Below are positions 1-38,662 of a stretch of DNA of 47,216 nt, one piece after another. Each line of letters starts with the position of its first letter. Positions within the stretch are counted from its first letter, which is position 1. Made by a program: the position numbers and the translations under genes. The DNA comes from a virus (taxonomy: Duplodnaviria > Caudoviricetes), in IMG/VR virus record IMGVR_UViG_3300048896_000171, positions 1 through 47,216 of that record. The stretch is one strand, 5' to 3'. The notes under the pieces were generated by a model. It searched no databases, was not told the DNA's origin, and was given only the letters and a program-made list of their open reading frames with translations.

Positions 1-127
1 CGGGGATGATCCGGTCGTCGATCATTGGCCGGCGGCCTTGGCGCGGTCGTCGTTCACGCGGTCGTAGATGCCCAGGGCCTGGGAGACCATCGCGGCCTCA
101 ATCTCCGCCGACTGCTCGAGCGTCGCG
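1..127. repeat. 127-bp terminal direct repeat (left copy), circular-assembly overlap
   Basis: Identical to 47090-47216; ORF 22..252 stop overlaps the start of ORF 46857..47114 across the join. Confidence 0.97.
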
Positions 128-252
128 CCCATGGCCAGGCAGAGCGCCGCCGCGCGGGCCACGGCGTCGTAGTAGGCCGGTAGGTTGATCGTCTTGAGCT
201 TGGTGTACATCGCGTCGCGTCGGGCGCGCGCGGTCTTGTCCTTGGTCGGCAT
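22..252 (-). CDS. hypothetical protein (76 aa)
   Basis: Stop/start overlaps with neighbours on both sides; helical protein-like composition. Confidence 0.75.
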   Translation of the reverse strand: MPTKDKTARARRDAMYTKLKTINLPAYYDAVARAAALCLAMGATLEQSAEIEAAMVSQALGIYDRVNDDRAKAAGQ

Positions 253-542
253 CAGTCCTCCGGAATCGGGCCGCTCGGGACCCAGTGTCGTCGCGCGACG
301 TCGTAGGCCGCCTCGGTGGCCGCCGTCCAGGGCACCGTCGCGCTGTAGACGCGAACGACGTGTTCAAATTCCCAGCCCTGGGCCTCCTCGGGCCGGAGCA
401 CGATCACGTACTCGCGCCCGTCGACGGTCCAGTACCGCCGGTTCTGGGGGGCCATCTTCGCCAGGGGCCGGCCGTAGAAGTACGCTTCGCCGGCGGCCAG
501 GGTCGGCGCCACAATCGCGATGGGCTTGCGCGGCGCCACCAC
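252..542 (-). CDS. hypothetical protein (96 aa)
   Basis: GGAGGAG SD upstream; TGATG coupling to 22..252. Confidence 0.75.
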   Translation of the reverse strand: MVAPRKPIAIVAPTLAAGEAYFYGRPLAKMAPQNRRYWTVDGREYVIVLRPEEAQGWEFEHVVRVYSATVPWTAATEAAYDVARRHWVPSGPIPED

Positions 543-559
543 CTCAGCTCCTCCCAGAT

Positions 560-963
560 TTGCACGCCGCGCGGCCCTGGGCTTTCACCAGGTTTCCGGT
601 CCTACCGTGGGGACTCCAGCGCGCGCCGGTCCTCCGCGGGTTCGGCGTCCACAGCCCACCGCCAGTCCATGAGCAACAACCCATTACGACCCTCACCAGA
701 CGCGCGCGTTCCAGCCGGCCTTGGCCAACCGATCCACGTCGCGCCGGCGTTCTAGGGCCAGCGATTTCCTGCGCCCGAGTGTCCACCATCCCCACATGGC
801 GACGAGCGGATCGTAACAACCGGTCCGCCCGCGGCGGGCTTTCCGTGCCCGCTTTCTAGCCCCTCGTTCGCGCCGCCCTGGTCTCTTGCGTCTCATAGAG
901 TGCGGTTAGCCTGGCCTACTGCGCGGGACCCGTCATTGCTGACGGTCGCCGCGCGGCGTGCAA
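560..963 (-). ncRNA. candidate large structured non-coding RNA (~404 nt)
   Basis: Perfect 16-bp inverted repeat 560-575/948-963 encloses the whole intergenic space; several internal helices with G-U pairs and a GCAA tetraloop on the minus strand; only poor ORFs. Confidence 0.65.
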
Positions 964-964
964 C

Positions 965-1189
965 TCAGCGCGGCTCCTCCGCGCGTAACTCCTCGGTCGA
1001 CTGCTCGGCCCGCGCTTCGCGCCGCGCCCGGCCGAGCCACAACTCGAAAGCGTGAAGGGTCTCCGGCTCCAGCACGATCCGATTGGTCGTCTGGATCCCG
1101 TCCTCCGTCGTGAGCACGACGCCGCCGGCCTCGTCGACCACCACGTACACGCCGTCGCCCAGGTAGTCCTTGCTAAAACGGCGTCGCAT
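965..1189 (-). CDS. conserved phage hypothetical protein (74 aa)
   Basis: YLGDGVY...LTT.DG....N.I.LEP pattern recalled from small phage proteins; GAGGAAGAGG SD. Confidence 0.8.
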   Translation of the reverse strand: MRRRFSKDYLGDGVYVVVDEAGGVVLTTEDGIQTTNRIVLEPETLHAFELWLGRARREARAEQSTEELRAEEPR

Positions 1190-1703
1190 CCTCTTCCTCC
1201 TCGGGCGGGGCCGTGTCGTCGGCCATCTGACTGGCGCGCGTGTAGGTCGACGGGACGGCCAGCTTTTTCTTATCCTTCGGGAGCGGCATCATCACCAGGA
1301 CCTCGGCGTACGTTTCGCCGCGCCGGTCCCGGTGCCCGATGTTCGCCAGCGCGTTCACCCCGATCAACCGCTCCAGGTCGAACGTCGCCGCGTCCTCCTC
1401 GCTGATGGGCTTGCCGCGCCACATATTCAGGTCGCGCCGCAGGCTGCTCCGCTCGTGCAGCGAGTAGGTGTACCGCTTCGTGAGGAGGAACATCTGGCCG
1501 TTCGGGGCCGTGTGTTCCGAGAGCCACCGGAGCTGGACTTTGTGCTTGACCTTGGGATGGCCGCCCCAGGTGTCGGTCACCATCCCCAGGTCCACCACGT
1601 CGCAGCAGACAATCCGTTGCACGCCTTCGGGACACAGCGCGCGCCGGCCGTCCTCGCTCCGGGGTCCGCCGGTGCTCTTCCCAGTGCCGGGAATCATCGC
1701 CAT
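1173..1703 (-). CDS. SSB-like phage replication protein (NGO0469-like family)
   Basis: VVDLG...KRYTYSLHERSSLRRDL..WRGK...FDLERLIG motif and acidic C-terminal tail ending EEEEDATPF; GGAGG SD before ATG 1703. Confidence 0.75.
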   Translation of the reverse strand: MAMIPGTGKSTGGPRSEDGRRALCPEGVQRIVCCDVVDLGMVTDTWGGHPKVKHKVQLRWLSEHTAPNGQMFLLTKRYTYSLHERSSLRRDLNMWRGKPISEEDAATFDLERLIGVNALANIGHRDRRGETYAEVLVMMPLPKDKKKLAVPSTYTRASQMADDTAPPEEEEDATPF

Positions 1704-1852
1704 CAGCGTTCGTACCTCCGTCGCGTGCGCCCGCAGGCCAGGCAAATGTCGACGACGTCGTGCGGCCAGTGCCGGTACGCCAGCAAGACCCACCGGTGCC
1801 GGCGCAGCCGCACCCAGCAGGCCCGGGGCCAGATCGTTCGCGACCAGACCAT
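1703..1852 (-). CDS. small Cys/His protein (49 aa), below ORF-track cutoff
   Basis: MVWSRTIWPRACWVRLRRHRW...DICLACGRTRRRYER; TGATG overlaps at both ends. Confidence 0.65.
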   Translation of the reverse strand: MVWSRTIWPRACWVRLRRHRWVLLAYRHWPHDVVDICLACGRTRRRYER

Positions 1853-2253
1853 CAGGCCGGCTCCCAGGTCACAATCAGCGTGCCGTCCGACGTGTGGGCC
1901 GCGTGCGATCCGTCGTGGCCGAGCGGCCGCGTGCAGCAGTACGGCGCGACCGGCATCGGCGCACTACGCGCGCCACACGACACGATCCCCGGCGCCGCCA
2001 TCTGGTGGGCCAGTCGTTCACCGAGCGAGGAAGCCGCGGGCCAGAAGGCCGGCGGCGGCGTCGCGTCGCCCGTCAGCTCCGGGTGGCGCGCGTAGTACTC
2101 GTCGAGCGCCTTGAGCTCACAGGCCGGACAGACCCACGGGCCGGCCGGCAACGGGCAATGCTCGGCATCGATCCGGCAGGTGAGGACATTCCCGCAGCGG
2201 CAGACGTGGTGATGGGTGCCCGGTCGACGGGGCGGCAAGTCTCGAGGGTCCAT
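1852..2253 (-). CDS. Cys/His-rich putative Zn-binding protein (133 aa)
   Basis: CAGGAG SD before ATG 2253; HxCxC, CPAC and C...GHDGSH motifs. Confidence 0.75.
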   Translation of the reverse strand: MDPRDLPPRRPGTHHHVCRCGNVLTCRIDAEHCPLPAGPWVCPACELKALDEYYARHPELTGDATPPPAFWPAASSLGERLAHQMAAPGIVSCGARSAPMPVAPYCCTRPLGHDGSHAAHTSDGTLIVTWEPA

Positions 2254-2290
2254 GCGACTCCTGAGTGAGTGTGACCCGGGCGGGGGAAAG

Positions 2291-2343
2291 GCCCGCACCG
2301 CTTCACTCGGGAGAGTGTGCGCCCGCACCGCTTCCCCTGTCAA
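2291..2343 (-). promoter_or_regulatory. sigma70-type promoter TTGACA-N18-CACACT with a 14-bp direct repeat (GAAGCGGTGCGGGC x2)
   Basis: -35 at 2338-2343, -10 at 2314-2319; repeat copies 2291-2304 and 2321-2334. Confidence 0.6.
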
Positions 2344-2373
2344 GGGGAAAACGGCGCGGGTGAGTGTGGTGGC

Positions 2374-2796
2374 CTAGTTTTCGTCGCCGGCGTCCGACCA
2401 GGCCGGGTCGACGTCTCGAGGCAGGCCCTGGTCCACCTGGTCGCGCGTCAGCCCGGACCCGTGGTAGCCGCCGCGCCGCGTGCCCACGCGCAGCCAGCGC
2501 GCATCCAGCCCCTGGGCGCGCCGCTCCCAGCGTTTGGTGAGTCTCGTGAGGTTCGCCCGCTCGTGCTTGTCCCAGCCGCCGACGATGCCGTGTTGCATCA
2601 GCAGGGGGATCGACGCGTGGAGCCAGGTGTCGCAGGCCAGCCAGTATTCGCGCGCCGCTGCCTCGCTGAGTATCGTCGGTTCGGCCGGCAGCAAGCGGTA
2701 GAACCGCGCCGAGTGCAACGGGCGCTTCACGCCGGGCCGTCGCGCCGGCAGGGCCGGCCGCGCGTCGCGCCAGGGGTTCCGCCGGGCCCCGCTCAC
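2374..2796 (-). CDS. hypothetical protein (start uncertain: GTG 2796 or 2730)
   Basis: GTGA overlap with upstream stop; protein-like C-terminal two-thirds. Confidence 0.7.
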   Translation of the reverse strand: MSGARRNPWRDARPALPARRPGVKRPLHSARFYRLLPAEPTILSEAAAREYWLACDTWLHASIPLLMQHGIVGGWDKHERANLTRLTKRWERRAQGLDARWLRVGTRRGGYHGSGLTRDQVDQGLPRDVDPAWSDAGDEN

Positions 2797-3026
2797 TGGG
2801 CCCCCGGACGCGTGTCGTCCTCGGCGCGTAGCTGCTGTTCGACCTCCACGATCAGGTCGACCTCGGTCACTTCGTACCGTCGCGGCATGTCGGCGAAGAA
2901 CGTCACGATCCGGGGCACGACAGCCACCAGGCGCGCCGGCTCGGCCTCGCGCAGCACGCGCGCCACCGCTTCGCCGATCCACTCCCGGCCGCGCCGTTCC
3001 ACTGTCAGATTGATCAAGGCCTTCAT
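2793..3026 (-). CDS. hypothetical protein (77 aa)
   Basis: AAGGAGG SD, ATGA overlap. Confidence 0.75.
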   Translation of the reverse strand: MKALINLTVERRGREWIGEAVARVLREAEPARLVAVVPRIVTFFADMPRRYEVTEVDLIVEVEQQLRAEDDTRPGAQ

Positions 3027-5035: not shown

Positions 5036-5056
5036 GGTCGGGTACTCCCTTGGAAG

Positions 5057-5097
5057 GGCCGCCGGGTCTAGGCTGGAAGGGCCCAGACCCGGCGGCC
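5057..5097 (-). promoter_or_regulatory. CCUUCCA-loop leader hairpin, copy 3 (17-bp stem)
   Basis: GGCCGCCGGGUCUGGGC-CCUUCCA-GCCUAGACCCGGCGGCC upstream of the SD of 4421..5035. Confidence 0.75.
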
Positions 5098-5107
5098 AGG
5101 TTGCCGA

Positions 5108-5560
5108 TTAGAACGGGTCGACGGTGGCGGCCAGCCCGGCCACGGGGGCCGGCGCCGGCGCCACCATGGGCCCGGGCACGGTCGCGATCACGGTCGACCC
5201 GTAGGACACCGTCAGCCGGTCCGGCGCCGGGTCGACGTCGACGGGGGCCGGCGCCACGGGCTGGGCCGCCGGCGCGTCGTACGCGTCCGCATAGGCCGCC
5301 AGGATGGCGCGCCGGATCGGTTCCTGGGCCAAGCTATCGGCCACGGGCCGCAGTAACGCGTAGGATCGGCGCCCGCCATTCACCGTGTACTGGCGCGCCG
5401 GCATGGTGACGTTGCGGCCGCCGTTGCGCCGTTCCCAGACTCCGAACCCGGCCAGCTTGAGGCCGGCCAGGGGGCCGGCGCCGGCGCCGAAGTGTATTTC
5501 TGCGTCCGCCAGCTTGCCGGCCGGGCCGCCACTATCCGTTACAAACTTGATCGTCAGCAT
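5108..5560 (-). CDS. SpoVG-like nucleic-acid-binding protein
   Basis: GKLADAEIHF...GLKL.GF.VWERR.GGRNVT.PARQY...RSYALLRP...IRRAIL.AY resembles the SpoVG-like pattern; low-complexity tail ending DPF. Confidence 0.65.
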   Translation of the reverse strand: MLTIKFVTDSGGPAGKLADAEIHFGAGAGPLAGLKLAGFGVWERRNGGRNVTMPARQYTVNGGRRSYALLRPVADSLAQEPIRRAILAAYADAYDAPAAQPVAPAPVDVDPAPDRLTVSYGSTVIATVPGPMVAPAPAPVAGLAATVDPF

Positions 5561-5604
5561 GATCGCTCCAATGCCGGCGCCAGGGCCGGCGGAAAACGTG
5601 CCCC

Positions 5605-6045
5605 CTAGAACGGATCGTCTGTGGCCGGCCGGGACACCTGCAGGGCCGCCGGCGCCGCCGGGCCCACGGGGGCCGGGACGCGCGGCACCTTGCCGGACGG
5701 GGGCCCGATGTCCTCCGGCGCCGGCGCGTCAATCGTGACGCGCGCGGCCTCCGTCAGCCGGGCCCAACACGTATCGACCAGGTCCGCCACACGGGCCCGG
5801 GCCCGGACCGCGGCCCCCAGGATGCGCCGGGCCTCCTGGAGACGTTCCCGGGCCGCGTCTGAGATGTCCGGAATGGCCACGGCCGCCACGGACGCATGTT
5901 CGGCGATGGCCAGGTCCTCGTCTGAGAAGTACCCCGTACCGTACGGATCGGCGACTAGGGCCAGGAAGACGCGCCGGCCCCAGACCGCGGCGTGCTCTCC
6001 GGGCTGACGGACGGGCACCGTCTCCGGAGTAAGAAACGTCGACAT
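5605..6045 (-). CDS. hypothetical protein (146 aa), C-terminus DDPF
   Basis: GGAGG SD; SSB-tail-like acidic/Phe end. Confidence 0.8.
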   Translation of the reverse strand: MSTFLTPETVPVRQPGEHAAVWGRRVFLALVADPYGTGYFSDEDLAIAEHASVAAVAIPDISDAARERLQEARRILGAAVRARARVADLVDTCWARLTEAARVTIDAPAPEDIGPPSGKVPRVPAPVGPAAPAALQVSRPATDDPF

Positions 6046-6059
6046 TGGACTATCCTCCC

Positions 6060-6094
6060 GGCCCGGGCCAGCGTGGAAGGCGCCAGCCCGGGCC
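6060..6094 (-). promoter_or_regulatory. CCUUCCA-loop leader hairpin, copy 2 (14-bp stem)
   Basis: GGCCCGGGCUGGCG-CCUUCCA-CGCUGGCCCGGGCC directly abutting the GGAGG SD of 5605..6045. Confidence 0.75.
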
Positions 6095-6108
6095 CACTTG
6101 GAAACGGA

Positions 6109-6225
6109 CTACCGAATCAATTCCGCGCGGATACACTCCGCGCGCGTGCGATGCGCCGGCCGGGCGTCGACGTCCCGGAGGACGGCCAACACGGCCAGGG
6201 CCAGGAGGCCGGCCAGGACGATCAA
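6109..6225 (-). CDS. small membrane peptide (38 aa)
   Basis: TTG start overlapping upstream stop; MIVLAGLLALAVLAVLRD... Confidence 0.45.
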   Translation of the reverse strand: MIVLAGLLALAVLAVLRDVDARPAHRTRAECIRAELIR

Positions 6226-6431
6226 GGCCGGCCCCCGCGGTCTAGGGCCAGGAGCACGCGCGCGCATCGCGCCAGCTCGCGACCGTACCGCCGTGACAGT
6301 AGATCATGGTCGAACGAAGGCCGGCCCGGCCGGCCCAGCGATTGCACCTGGCGGACGATGCGCGCGGCCTCCCGGGTGACGGACCGGTGTAGGTCCGCCC
6401 GGGAGGCCGAGAACGTGTAGACGCGCGTCAT
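6222..6431 (-). CDS. hypothetical protein (69 aa)
   Basis: ATGA overlap with 6428..6625; MTRVYTFSASRADLHRS... Confidence 0.6.
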   Translation of the reverse strand: MTRVYTFSASRADLHRSVTREAARIVRQVQSLGRPGRPSFDHDLLSRRYGRELARCARVLLALDRGGRP

Positions 6432-6625
6432 ACCTGGCCCCCAGGATCGGCCACGGCCTCTAACGGGTGCTCCGTGGCGCGCCGGAACCGTTTCAAGTAG
6501 CAGGATGTCCGCTCCAAAAGGCGCCGGCATTGGGGGCACCGGGCCAGCCGGAGTAACGGCCGGCCGGCCCACTGGTAGTACAGCTTGCATCGCGTGCACT
6601 TGCCCTGCGTCACCCGGGCCGCCAT
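6428..6625 (-). CDS. Zn-ribbon protein (65 aa)
   Basis: CTRC...CPQC; starts immediately after the DUF932 stop. Confidence 0.7.
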   Translation of the reverse strand: MAARVTQGKCTRCKLYYQWAGRPLLRLARCPQCRRLLERTSCYLKRFRRATEHPLEAVADPGGQV

Positions 6626-7669
6626 CTAGGCCGCCACCAATTGACGCGCCGCAACCAGGGCCCGGGCCTTGACGTCGTTATAGCCCCCGAACAAGGCCGA
6701 AGACTGGGCCGCCTTGCGCGCGTTGTCGGTTTTCGCCTCCGCCGGCCGGACATGGTCGAAGTACTCCGTCACGGCATTCCACACGGCCCATGGCGTGGTG
6801 TTCCCGTCCGCCGTCGACCCGGCCAGGTCCGCGCCCTTCCCCAGCCACACTAACTGGGAAATCGTCTGGCGCCGGGCCTTGAGGATCGGCGACACAATCG
6901 GCGCGCCGGTCTTGACGTCCGTCTCCGTCGACGGGAATACCGTTTGAATGTAGCGCGCGACGTCCGCCGGCCCGATGATGCGGTTCCGGAGACTGGCGAA
7001 GGTTTCCCCGGTCTTGATCGCGGCCTCCGTCAGCCCGGACAGCACGGCCTCCGCATCGTGCAAGCGTTCGGCCGCGTTCGCGCGATGCATGACGCGCGCG
7101 ACCGATCCGGCCTTGCCGAGCAGGTCCGCCAGGGCCGCGTTGTACGTGTTCTGGCAGACCACGCGGATCAGCGTCAGGTCGACCAGGTACGACAGATTGC
7201 CAGTGTGCCCCCAGCGCAGGAACGCGTAGCCCTTGACGGTGTCCCCGGTGCCCCCGACATCGATCAAGGCGTCCGGCATTTGGACCAGGGCCCAGCATTC
7301 CGACCCGTTCCCTAACGCGCCGGCCGTGGCCACCTGGCACCCCAGCCGGGTCACCATGTCCTCTAGCGTCCGCATGGCGTCCTCGTTTTGGATCACGGTG
7401 TAGTCCGGGCCCACCGAGGACAAGTAGACGGGCCCGGCGGCCGAGGACCGCAGGACCGCTTGCGTGTCCTTCACCGTCACCCAGCCGGACGGGCTGGGGT
7501 ACCCCATGGGGGCCAGGGAAACTTGCCAGTCAAGGCCGGCGGCCTTCCGGACCGCGTCGACGTCCCGGGCCATCTCCGGGGTAATTTTGGTGCCCAGCCC
7601 GTGCCATGGCGTCTGGCCCAGATAGGCAATGCTCACGCGTCCGTCAATTTCCGCAAGGTTTGCAGGCAT
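6626..7669 (-). CDS. DUF932 / TIGR03299-like phage-plasmid protein
   Basis: PWHGLG, AGLDW.V, Y.VIQN, TAGAL..G, IRVVCQNT and W..WNAVTEYFDH motifs; AGGAG SD. Confidence 0.92.
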   Translation of the reverse strand: MPANLAEIDGRVSIAYLGQTPWHGLGTKITPEMARDVDAVRKAAGLDWQVSLAPMGYPSPSGWVTVKDTQAVLRSSAAGPVYLSSVGPDYTVIQNEDAMRTLEDMVTRLGCQVATAGALGNGSECWALVQMPDALIDVGGTGDTVKGYAFLRWGHTGNLSYLVDLTLIRVVCQNTYNAALADLLGKAGSVARVMHRANAAERLHDAEAVLSGLTEAAIKTGETFASLRNRIIGPADVARYIQTVFPSTETDVKTGAPIVSPILKARRQTISQLVWLGKGADLAGSTADGNTTPWAVWNAVTEYFDHVRPAEAKTDNARKAAQSSALFGGYNDVKARALVAARQLVAA

Positions 7670-7695
7670 TTGGAAGACTCCTAAACGACAGATTC

Positions 7696-7741
7696 GGCCC
7701 CCGTTCCGGACTAGCGTGGAAGGCGCTAGACCGCGGGGGCC
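7696..7741 (-). promoter_or_regulatory. CCUUCCA-loop leader hairpin, copy 1, at the predicted 5' end of the early transcript
   Basis: CUAGCG-CCUUCCA-CGCUAG core inside a GGCCCCCG/CGGGGGCC outer stem. Confidence 0.75.
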
Positions 7742-7746
7742 TTGTC

Positions 7747-7776
7747 ATTCTGAGGCCGGCCGCCGGCCCGTGTCAA
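7747..7776 (-). promoter_or_regulatory. sigma70-type early promoter TTGACA-N18-CAGAAT
   Basis: Consensus -35 at 7771-7776, -10 at 7747-7752, upstream of the DUF932 operon. Confidence 0.7.
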
Positions 7777-7980
7777 GTACCGCGATTGTCAGATTGTCGC
7801 AAGATGGCGCGCGCGTGAGCCTTGCAGGTTCGGTGCCAGCCAGCCCGGCGCGCCCCGACGATCAAGCCCGTCCCGGCCCGGCCTTAGACCGCGGACCGGT
7901 CCGGCCCCAGCCCGGCCTCAGCCCGTCCCCGTCCCCCAGCCCGGCAAGTCTTTTCCGGGCCGCCCCGGGCCGGTACGGGC

Positions 7981-8008
7981 ATTGTAGGCCGTTCCCGGGC
8001 CGTGTCAA
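7981..8008 (-). promoter_or_regulatory. sigma70-type early promoter TTGACA-N16-TACAAT
   Basis: Near-consensus hexamers within an otherwise extremely GC-rich tract. Confidence 0.65.
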
Positions 8009-8409
8009 GGGGAATCGGTCCGCCCGGCCCGGACACGGGCCGCCACGGCCCGGCCGGCCCGGCCTCCCGGGCCCGGCCACGGCCCGGCCCCGGGCCGGGG
8101 GAGGCCCCCGCGCGGCCCGGCCCGGTCCGGTCGGGGGGTCGGCCCGGGAGATTTTACGGTCCGAGGTCGGGAATGGCCGGACCGAGTGCGGGCCGGGCGG
8201 GCCGTAGTCAGGACCGGGCACGGGCCGGCGCAGGCCTGGCGCGGCGGGGCGAATCAGGCTGCTGGCGGCCTGGACGCAGGCCGGGGCGACGATCGTCGTT
8301 CCTGGGGCCTTCTGGCGGGTTCTGTGTTATGAGCCGTTGCAGCCTCGAGCGCAGCGAGAGTGCTCTCGGCCCGGTGGGGGCAATGACCGCGAAATTTTCA
8401 CGGGGAGGG

Positions 8410-8439
8410 TGGACACGGACGGGGCCGGTCCGGTAGGAT
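8410..8439 (+). promoter_or_regulatory. possible promoter TGGACA-N18-TAGGAT
   Basis: Hexamer match upstream of ORF 8621. Confidence 0.4.
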
Positions 8440-8620
8440 GCATTCGGGCCGAGACAGGCCGCGGGCCGAGCAATCAGGCCGCGGAACCTTTCGGACCGAG
8501 GCGCGGACGCGGGCGGGCCCTTGAGGCCGACGCGGACCGTGAACGTCTCCGCCCGAGACTCCCGGGCCGGGTCGCGTTGGAAAGCGTCCCGTCCGTGCCT
8601 CAGTCCGTGGGCCCCCAGTT

Positions 8621-8893
8621 ATGCGGCAGCTTGAGCTGTTGCACGCCGACGTCCCACCCGCCTCCCTCCCGGTGGTGATTCTCGTCCTGCGTGACGCCTA
8701 TAAGAAATTCGGCCGGCCCCAGACCGACGGCGAGCGCCGCACGGTCGGGGCGTGGTGTCGCGCCGAAGTGGAACGGCGCTTGAAGGCCGAAGGGGCCGCG
8801 GCCGACCGGCCGGCGGCCGTGCGCGTCGCCTATGGGGAGCTCGCCAGCGCGGTCGCCGAATCGGGCGGCGTGCCGGATGAACCGGCCTTTTGA
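8621..8893 (+). CDS. hypothetical protein (90 aa)
   Basis: Protein-like helical ORF; weak SD. Confidence 0.55.
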   Translation: MRQLELLHADVPPASLPVVILVLRDAYKKFGRPQTDGERRTVGAWCRAEVERRLKAEGAAADRPAAVRVAYGELASAVAESGGVPDEPAF

Positions 8894-8948
8894 CGCTTAC
8901 CAGACGCGGACGACCCAGGCCCAGACGGCCCGGGCCCAGCGCGTCAGC

Positions 8949-9278
8949 CTAGAGCGCCACCGTGCGAAAGTTGGTGGGGACGCCGCACCCCGTCAGCGTC
9001 AACCCGACGACGACCGGCGTCCGGCCCGGCACGCGGACCGTGAAGCTGTGGCCGCCCTGCGCGGGCGGTTCGGTCGACCCGACGACCTCACTCACCGCGA
9101 TCGTGCACGAGAACGGGCTCGAGAGATTCGCGACCGTGGGGCCGATTTGCCGCTCGGCGCCCCCATCGAAACTCACGAAATAGGGCCCCGCTTGCGCGGC
9201 GGCTAGGTCCGAGGCCGGTTGGTCCCAGGCGACGGCGGTGGTGGCGTAGTCAGCGGCGGCGACGTTGAGATTGTCCAT
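8949..9278 (-). CDS. small beta-sandwich (Fn3/Ig-like) protein (109 aa)
   Basis: AWDQP...YFVSFDG...SPFSC...GGHSFTV...PTNFR pattern; own promoter 9 nt upstream of ATG 9278. Confidence 0.65.
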   Translation of the reverse strand: MDNLNVAAADYATTAVAWDQPASDLAAAQAGPYFVSFDGGAERQIGPTVANLSSPFSCTIAVSEVVGSTEPPAQGGHSFTVRVPGRTPVVVGLTLTGCGVPTNFRTVAL

Positions 9279-9380: not shown

Positions 9381-9409
9381 TTGACAAGCCGCGCCGACGG
9401 GCGCATTCT
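9381..9409 (+). promoter_or_regulatory. promoter TTGACA-N17-CATTCT (near-leaderless), heading the packaging operon
   Basis: Hexamers at 9381-9386 and 9404-9409; ATG at 9419 with no SD. Confidence 0.65.
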
Positions 9410-37489: not shown

Positions 37490-38662
37490 CTAGCTGCCAC
37501 CCACGATTGAGAACGACATCGACAGCGAGACCGAGCCGCTCAGGCTCAAGCGCACGCAGAGCGACTGGCCGATATAACTGGCCTTGACGAACGTCACCGG
37601 GACGCCGGCCGGCAGCGGCACAGGCGCGTTGAGCTCGTGCGGCGTGGCCGTCTCGCAGCCACTGACGATCACCGCGGTCTGGGTCTGATTGCCCGGCAGC
37701 TTCGCCGACGTCAACATCACCGCCGCCACGGTCCGCGCGCCGGCGACCGGCGGCTGGACGACGGTAACGAGCTGCGTCAGCGCGCCGTTGGAATTCTGTT
37801 CGAAGAGCGCGCCGCCGGGATTGCCCTGGACGCCCTGCGGTCCCGGGTCGCCCTTGGGGCCGGGGTCGCCCTTGCCGCCCGGGAGGCCCTGGACGCCCGG
37901 CGTCCCCTGGACGCCCGGCGCGCCCGGGTCGCCCTTGTCGCCTTTGTCGCCCTTCTGACCCGGGACGCCCTGCTGGCCTTGCACGCCAGGCGTGCCGGGG
38001 ATGCCCTGTGAGCCTGGCTGGCCGGGGTCGCCTTTGTCGCCCTTCTGCCCGGGCACGCCCTGTTGGCCCTGCGTCCCCTGGATGCCCGGCGCGCCGGCGT
38101 CACCCTTGTCGCCTTTGTCGCCCTTCTGACCGGGGACGCCCTGTTGCCCCTGCGTGCCCTGGACGCCCGGCGTCCCTTGCTGCCCGGGGTCGCCTTTGTC
38201 GCCTTTGTCCCCTTTGTCCCCCGCGGGTCCAGCCGGCCCCGGCGGCCCAGGGGGTCCAGGCGGCCCAGGGGGTCCAGGCGGCCCTTGCCCGCCGCCGCCC
38301 GTCTGGTCGCCGTTCGCGACGTTGATCGCGATCATTGGGGCGCTCGCCAGGTCGTCGTCGGCAATCGCCTTGAGGAGGTACGCCCCGTTGTAGAGCGTGC
38401 CCAGGTGGACACTCCCCGACCACGCGGTCGGGCCGCCGTTGGCCAGGCACTCGCAGACGATCGTGAAATCCGCGCGGCGGACTTCGAAGACCATCTTCGT
38501 CACCGGGACGTCGGTCGTGACATCGACGCGCGTCTCGCCGGCGACGACGGCCTGGGGGAGCGGATTGGTAATCGTGACGACGGCCGGCGTCTGGGGGAGC
38601 GCCGAGACCAGCGCGGTCACCAGCGCGAAGAGCGACACGAACAGGGGACGAACGAAGGTCAT
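37490..38662 (-). CDS. exported Ig-like + collagen triple-helix protein
   Basis: N-terminal signal peptide, Big-like domain (V.IT.P....V.G...NG.Y.L.A.A.D), ~50 uninterrupted Gly-X-Y triplets, small C-terminal domain. Confidence 0.88.

Follow-up and report, generated by a model that had tools for sequence, protein, structure and literature searches.

A candidate structured RNA with a tRNA-like outer frame between two early genes of a soil podophage-like genome

What occupies the long gap between two adjacent genes in the minus-strand early region of a soil phage genome? The window analyzed here, 47,216 nucleotides in length, is a complete podophage-like genome of 47 kb from soil, with 127-nt direct terminal repeats and a G+C content of 69%. 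Its plus strand encodes a terminase, a P22-like portal and a major head protein (Pfam and PHROG scans), and its minus strand carries a long series of small, tightly packed genes; a collagen-like triple-helix repeat protein is encoded at 37490–38662, also on the minus strand. The gap, at 543–964, separates the end of a 74-aa gene (965) from the start of a 96-aa gene (542):

965..1189, minus strand: upstream gene, 74 aa, assigned to PHROG 11545 (function unknown); whole in related phages without the insert described below.
252..556, minus strand: downstream gene, 96 aa, family unknown, with its start at 542 and a ribosome-binding site at about 556–550.

This gap is non-coding: six candidate frames within it and one sub-frame have codon scores of −0.10 to −0.85, as compared with an average of +0.41 and a minimum of 0.00 among 36 phage genes. 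Nearly all of it is taken up by a 404-nt insert (560–963), which is present in a single copy in the genome. The surrounding stretch (200–1700) is found in soil metagenomes, which make up all 18 of the runs listed as holding it; at least half of its words occur in five of them, two of which may be the source, and none of the listed runs is an RNA run. In four runs with a small share of the stretch, short identical pieces are all that is found, with no real joint. An assembly titled Acidobacteriota includes a contig that encodes a relative of the head protein (68% identity), which does not by itself establish the phage host.

The two ends of the insert, read on the minus strand, form an outer frame consisting of a long helix and two small hairpins:

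948..963, minus strand: 5′ strand of the closing helix (P1), a perfect complement of 560–575 with no G–U pair, beginning 1 nt past the upstream stop codon.
560..575, minus strand: 3′ strand of P1, finishing 3–4 nt ahead of the downstream ribosome-binding site.
930..945, minus strand: 6-bp hairpin with a GCAA (GNRA) loop, 2 nt inside P1, at the D-arm position of a cloverleaf-like frame; pairing probability 0.86.
576..592, minus strand: 5-bp hairpin with the 7-nt loop UGAAAGC, a T-loop of the YGNRA-NY type, abutting the 3′ strand of P1; pairing probability 0.92.

A preliminary description of the locus had proposed a perfect 16-bp helix enclosing nearly the whole gap, together with the hairpins CCGUCA-GCAA-UGACGG (945–930) and CCUGG-UGAAAGC-CCAGG (592–576). 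All three were confirmed, the helix being a perfect 16-bp inverted repeat (560–575/948–963) with a mean pairing probability of 0.98. The loop UGAAAGC was matched to the (YGNRA)NY T-loop consensus of 10.1101/2022.12.26.521914.

Because perfect inverted repeats of 16 bp within 500 nt also turn up in 9 of 100 simulated genomes, the helix on its own is modest evidence. The excess over chance lies in the placement of P1 at both ends of the gap and in the two hairpins set against it. With descriptors picked after inspection of the sequence, dinucleotide shuffling yields both the GNRA and the T-loop hairpin in 3 of 20,000 sequences; genome-wide, the 6-bp GNRA hairpin descriptor has two matches on the minus strand (one of them 945–930) and seven on the plus strand, while 592–576 is the sole T-loop hairpin that the strict descriptor finds on either strand. 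A looser T-loop descriptor, applied to 844 kb of 122 other loci, gave 59 occurrences, of which three (two distinct) are accompanied by even an 8-bp stacked closing helix. For the outer frame, selection seems to have acted on the RNA of the minus strand.

Inverted repeats are clustered elsewhere in the early region as well. A second perfect 16-bp repeat has its arms 1.5 kb apart (6230–6245/7726–7741), which together with P1 makes two within 1.5 kb genome-wide; at least two such repeats are found in 2 of 100 simulated genomes. Three 14-bp inverted repeats (5568/6533, 5998/7039 and 1963/2096) also fall in this region.

P1 and the two outer hairpins, as modeled, would give a tRNA-like frame in which some 320–330 nt replace the anticodon arm. 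The insert shares features with the tRNA-like domains of tmRNA and bacterial Y RNA: its ends are paired, a 2-nt linker leads to a D-arm-like hairpin, and a large insertion stands at the position of the anticodon arm, followed by a 5–6-nt linker and a 5-bp stem whose 7-nt T-loop arm is stacked on the closing helix. Unlike tRNA and tmRNA, however, the insert has a closing helix of 16 bp rather than 7, no 3′ CCA, and a GNRA tetraloop at the D position; the canonical T-arm pattern is absent, and the T-loop is of the YGNRA type of riboswitches and introns, not the UUCRA type (for their distribution, see 10.1101/2022.12.26.521914). ARAGORN found neither tRNA nor tmRNA genes in the phage genome. On the strength of the long stem, the missing CCA, the non-canonical T-loop and the ARAGORN result, identity as a tRNA or tmRNA was rejected.

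The whole element has a folding z-score of −3.25 on the minus strand and −2.70 on the plus strand (−4.1 in a separate run), as against only −0.9 once the closing helix is removed. Values of −2.9 to −3.6 are also attained by 3 of 17 control tiles taken elsewhere in this genome. The interior itself comprises the following features:

599..929, minus strand: interior, about 330 nt long, with a possible 4-bp opening helix (929–926/602–599) and two incompatible long-range folds 10.7 kcal/mol apart.
786..852, minus strand: three adjacent stable hairpins (852–834, 832–802 and 799–786), with pairing probabilities of 0.95, 0.96 and 0.93.
607..689, minus strand: segments complementary to upstream loops or strands (689–684/816–811, 673–669/896–892, 611–607/795–791 and 667–664/615–612), all Watson–Crick; candidate pseudoknots or intermolecular kisses.

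A hierarchical fold had been proposed for this region, in which a GGUCC/GGACC helix joins the two outer hairpins, long helices at 921–903/731–712 and 707–695/630–619 close two domains, and a GGACU/AGUCC pseudoknot is possible. The segments concerned are all complementary as written, but the pairing probabilities are 0.02 for the joining helix (which is reduced to the 4 bp named above if the GCAA stem keeps its 6 bp), 0.00 for each of the two long helices, and 0.00–0.02 for the pseudoknot; none of them has support from folding. Imposing the two long helices raises the energy by 10.7 kcal/mol, from −211.2 for the minimum-energy fold to −200.5 (ViennaRNA), and the hierarchical arrangement is not supported in this calculation.

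Given that earlier fold, perfect complements of three hairpin loops (816–811, 896–892 and 795–791) lie in unpaired 3′ segments (689–684, 673–669 and 611–607, respectively), beside the proposed pseudoknot. Loop–strand pairings of this kind would account for the failure of a program restricted to nested folds to find such an interior. The joint probability of the complements, calculated post hoc and conditional on the earlier fold, is 0.0008 for three loops chosen out of five and 0.015 for all five. Nevertheless, the three pairings fail unbiased controls: one fold-independent test recovers no loops, and a second recovers one, with at least one recovered in 43 of 200 shuffles. A fully pseudoknotted model, with strands kept single and helices forced, costs about 30 kcal/mol relative to the minimum-energy fold, the contribution of the knots not included; as isolated duplexes, the core knots have energies of −2 to −7 kcal/mol and their extended forms −9 to −15 kcal/mol. 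Both of the incompatible long-range folds are candidates for the interior.

No homolog of the insert was found in any collection searched, and the RNA is known from one sequence. The preliminary description had suggested that a match to a known Rfam family would remove its novelty; no Rfam 15 family matches the window at the gathering score (cmscan), and at an E-value of 10 the 801 nt at 400–1200 give only two weak matches, a c-di-GMP-I aptamer and a nematode snoRNA (E-values of 2.2 and 5.1, respectively), both far under threshold and rejected. Searches by blastn of 50,697 phage and 72,556 plasmid records returned short chance matches only, in 3 and 66 records, and BLAST of 19 related viral records gave matches of at most 27 nt, in six of them. 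A BLAST search of genome G020 and 285 genomes of its class or phylum (two sets equal in size) gave one 34-nt match. Motif patterns had 5 and 17 matches in viral contigs and 35 in metagenome contigs, none alignable. Translations of the internal open reading frames, used as degenerate probes, passed 2 of 38 and 0 of 68 candidates in viral contigs, both passes being attributable to chance, and 0 of 600 in genome contigs. Three covariance models built from the single sequence gave best non-self scores of 18.9, 10.6 and 13.1 bits on other loci, and 0, 4 and 1 partial hits of 18–26 bits, without retention of the structure, in 151 genomes each; the 18.9-bit hit lies in G001, where it overlaps an open reading frame predicted beside a repressor-like gene, and was set aside. 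Single-sequence models and exact patterns are insensitive, and the failure of these searches does not show that homologs are absent.

A cloverleaf descriptor likewise found no true relative on other loci. A small structured element, conserved and intergenic, is common to five viral contigs (L042, L051, L056, L057 and L058; about 90 kb and 64 kb) at about 560–640; it has a T-loop-like hairpin immediately ahead of an A-rich leader and is unrelated to the insert. In the literature, we found no paper on a phage RNA in which a cloverleaf frames a large insertion. The available portions of 10.64898/2026.09.22.753630 and PMC10085705 do not concern this architecture, and short motifs of the insert are absent from supplements 3–6 of PMC10690425 (10,000 viral RNA candidates), the alignment archives of which lay outside the search and could list the element.

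Related phages are represented by 549 head-protein relatives and 18 viral loci. Two related phages lack the insert at the corresponding position. One (G009) has relatives of both upstream genes, their order unchanged, and behind them packed genes without a long gap; the other (G006), with one of the upstream-gene relatives, likewise has no such gap. A sister strain is represented by a 29,264-nt contig (taken as single) and a 7,512-nt contig. Its flanking proteins are otherwise about 97–98% identical to those of the window, with just 1 and 2 further differences, but the upstream protein differs at its last residue and the downstream protein at its first four; the change of the last residue from Arg to Lys requires that all three codon bases differ. 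Since these changes fall exactly at both junctions, the protein ends suggest that the intervening segment has been exchanged or is missing in the sister strain, as would be the case for a swappable cassette. A 47,086-nt contig probably keeps the insert, because it has the downstream protein of the window and nearly the length of the window without the repeat.

Short direct repeats are found around the junctions. A 6-nt repeat containing a stop codon (969–964 and 548–543, minus strand) flanks the insert plus 11 nt; loss of one copy along with the segment would leave a normal stop–start junction, in which the purine-rich end of the upstream gene would be the ribosome-binding site. A 7-nt word occurs at both 974–968 and 534–528 (minus strand), as well as within both arms of P1. 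In one phase it encodes Pro-Arg before the upstream stop and at the downstream start, such that skipping the segment would fuse the two open reading frames in frame. Ribosomal hopping or splicing between these in-phase repeats (974/534) was considered and rejected: the sister strain is without the matching codons, and the upstream protein is separate in relatives.

With regard to expression, the nearest candidate signal lies well upstream:

2314..2343, minus strand: nearest upstream sigma70-like promoter match, a putative promoter by pattern, about 1.4 kb before the insert.

The minus-strand promoter-like matches nearest the insert are those at 2343, 7776 and 8008; a stricter scan finds no promoter in 1–3000 and no minus-strand terminator. 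As it has no promoter or terminator match of its own, the insert is probably transcribed within a polycistronic early message. The sigma70-like matches at 7747–7776 and 7981–8008 (minus strand) and at 9381 (plus strand) point outward from a control region at 8–9 kb; an internal one at 2343 (2290–2343, minus strand) is overlapped by a tandem 14-nt direct repeat, possibly an operator. Intergenic leaders of the early operon also contain minus-strand hairpins with an identical 7-nt loop, at 5051–5080 (two, near 5051–5074), 6064–6092 (6074) and 7707–7735 (7717). These recurrent hairpins could be binding sites or processing signals, and no Rfam family matches in 5400–9000.

Our preferred reading, to which we would give about an even chance, is that the insert is an accessory RNA gene, co-transcribed early and cut out at P1 as a stable folded RNA of about 380–400 nt that acts as a scaffold or decoy. 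The insert occupies the space from stop codon to ribosome-binding site. With its ends paired, these two sites would lie within about 5 nt of one another, such that the insert would hardly disturb the packed operon. Transcription would be driven by the upstream minus-strand promoters, and P1, extended by the stacked 5-bp T-loop stem, could be the stem at which a host nuclease, RNase III for example, processes the transcript. RNase III cleaves the duplexes on either side of 16S and 23S rRNA and removes intervening sequences that form stems (PMC8708148). Like these stems and the T7 early sites described in the same source, P1 is a long terminal duplex enclosing RNA within a longer transcript; it differs from them in being 16 bp long and in lying between protein genes, and its cleavage is presumed by analogy.

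RNA tertiary structures use GNRA loops, T-loops and kissing loops as docking modules. In the proposed scheme, the GNRA loop, the T-loop and the loop–strand pairings are predicted to dock, making of the interior a compact RNA-only particle, possibly self-associating, in the manner of GOLLD and ROOL. This particle would benefit the infecting phage, its most likely role being that of scaffold or decoy toward a host RNA-binding factor. The insert would be dispensable, moving among phages as a recombination cassette.

Several other explanations must be weighed against this one. It is possible, if unlikely, that the fold never leaves the message and instead serves in cis as a processing or stabilizing point between early genes, in the style of the RNase III sites of T7, with no free RNA produced. 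RNase III is known to target T7 R1.1 (PMC8708148), the insert fits precisely into the space from a stop codon to a ribosome-binding site, other intergenic hairpins with a common loop recur in the same operon, and good support is limited to the outer frame and local hairpins, all of which would fit such a spacer; 404 nt, however, far exceeds what a cleavage stem needs, the element is single-copy and missing at the same position in related phages, and the ribosome-binding site falls outside the helix in computed folds, offering no obvious switch. An improbable alternative dispenses with RNA function altogether and regards the insert as a DNA-level insertion or decayed sequence (a MITE or recombination junk), the folding of which is a by-product of 69% G+C. 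The perfect 16-bp terminal inverted repeats, the apparent strain variability, the interior z-score of −0.9, the frequency of such repeats in simulated genomes and the failure to find relatives suit this reading. Dispersed copies with target-site duplications would, by the preliminary description, have marked a MITE, but there is one copy in the genome and none in the collections searched, no flush target-site duplication (the 6- and 7-nt repeats near the junctions being offset) and no transposase among the 70 window proteins scanned with Pfam, and the strand-specific GNRA and T-loop hairpins abut the helix, an arrangement rare in shuffles.

That the insert is an atypical self-splicing intron or ribozyme, removing or circularizing itself and leaving the operon intact, is very unlikely. 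The size, optional presence and placement of the insert and its GNRA and T-loop docking motifs are shared with group I and group II introns, and the candidate pseudoknot 667–664/615–612 bears a loose resemblance to the group I P7 helix. Upon inspection, however, the positions of P4–P6 and P8 around that pseudoknot offer only about 27 nt and 3 nt, respectively, too little for either. No gene is split, the upstream protein being full length in relatives, and no Rfam intron or ribozyme matches the 801 nt even at an E-value of 10, although Rfam can miss divergent introns. Crude descriptors of the conserved cores of group I (R/S), group II (domain V), RNase P and hammerhead RNAs match nothing on either strand; together with Rfam and ARAGORN, they agree with the preliminary description, which had seen no RNase P, tmRNA, group II domain V or group I core. 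No homing nuclease or maturase was found among the Pfam-scanned proteins, and no reverse transcriptase family among 70 proteins (Pfam) or 25 (PHROGs), a set that does not cover every open reading frame; nor was an adjacent reverse transcriptase gene, as expected of a retron, found. Scarcely credible, finally, is a small protein gene within a structured leader and trailer, whether ORF 693–896 (67 aa, Arg-rich) or ORF 544–819 (91 aa). The 3′ half of the former has a GC3 of 0.82 and a codon score of −0.10, near that of the weakest real gene, and the latter stops 1 nt before the next start codon; yet the whole-ORF codon scores are −0.37 and −0.65, respectively, and no ribosome-binding site precedes 896. 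A conserved protein in either frame had been named as contrary to an RNA, and neither has a Pfam or PHROG family or a protein relative in the searches made, or is a called gene in a 15-billion collection. A suspected likeness of the end of ORF 693–896 to a Vsr-type nuclease was not borne out by the Pfam and protein-relative searches.

Taking the excised accessory RNA and the cis-acting spacer together, it is likely that the insert is a real structured RNA, uncatalogued in the sense of being absent from Rfam. Its likeness to GOLLD and ROOL is conceptual only. Those phage RNAs form assemblies or cages held together by kissing loops and A-minor contacts, they are larger (659 nt for the solved ROOL and more than 800 nt for many GOLLD RNAs, versus 404 nt here), and they are often, if not always, encoded near tRNA islands (PMC12286853), whereas this phage has no tRNA genes. 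Nor does the insert match their covariance models, at the gathering score on the window or at an E-value of 10 on 400–1200. It is an orphan among large phage RNAs, and a single-sequence candidate.

Large, intricately folded RNAs of bacteria and phages are rare, and the few that have been solved (GOLLD, ROOL and OLE) proved to be unexpected RNA-only assemblies of unknown function. A bolder reading, which we hold with little confidence, is that the insert represents a new RNA class: a tRNA-shaped frame in which a 330-nt domain with four pseudoknots stands in for the anticodon arm, carried as a stop-to-start cassette that the closing helix hides from translation, and acting as an RNA-only decoy, particle or catalyst. 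If this is true, a 400-nt, tRNA-framed RNA swapped between strains would add a new architecture to this small group, and the swapping itself would offer a natural comparison, with and without the element, for what such RNAs do.
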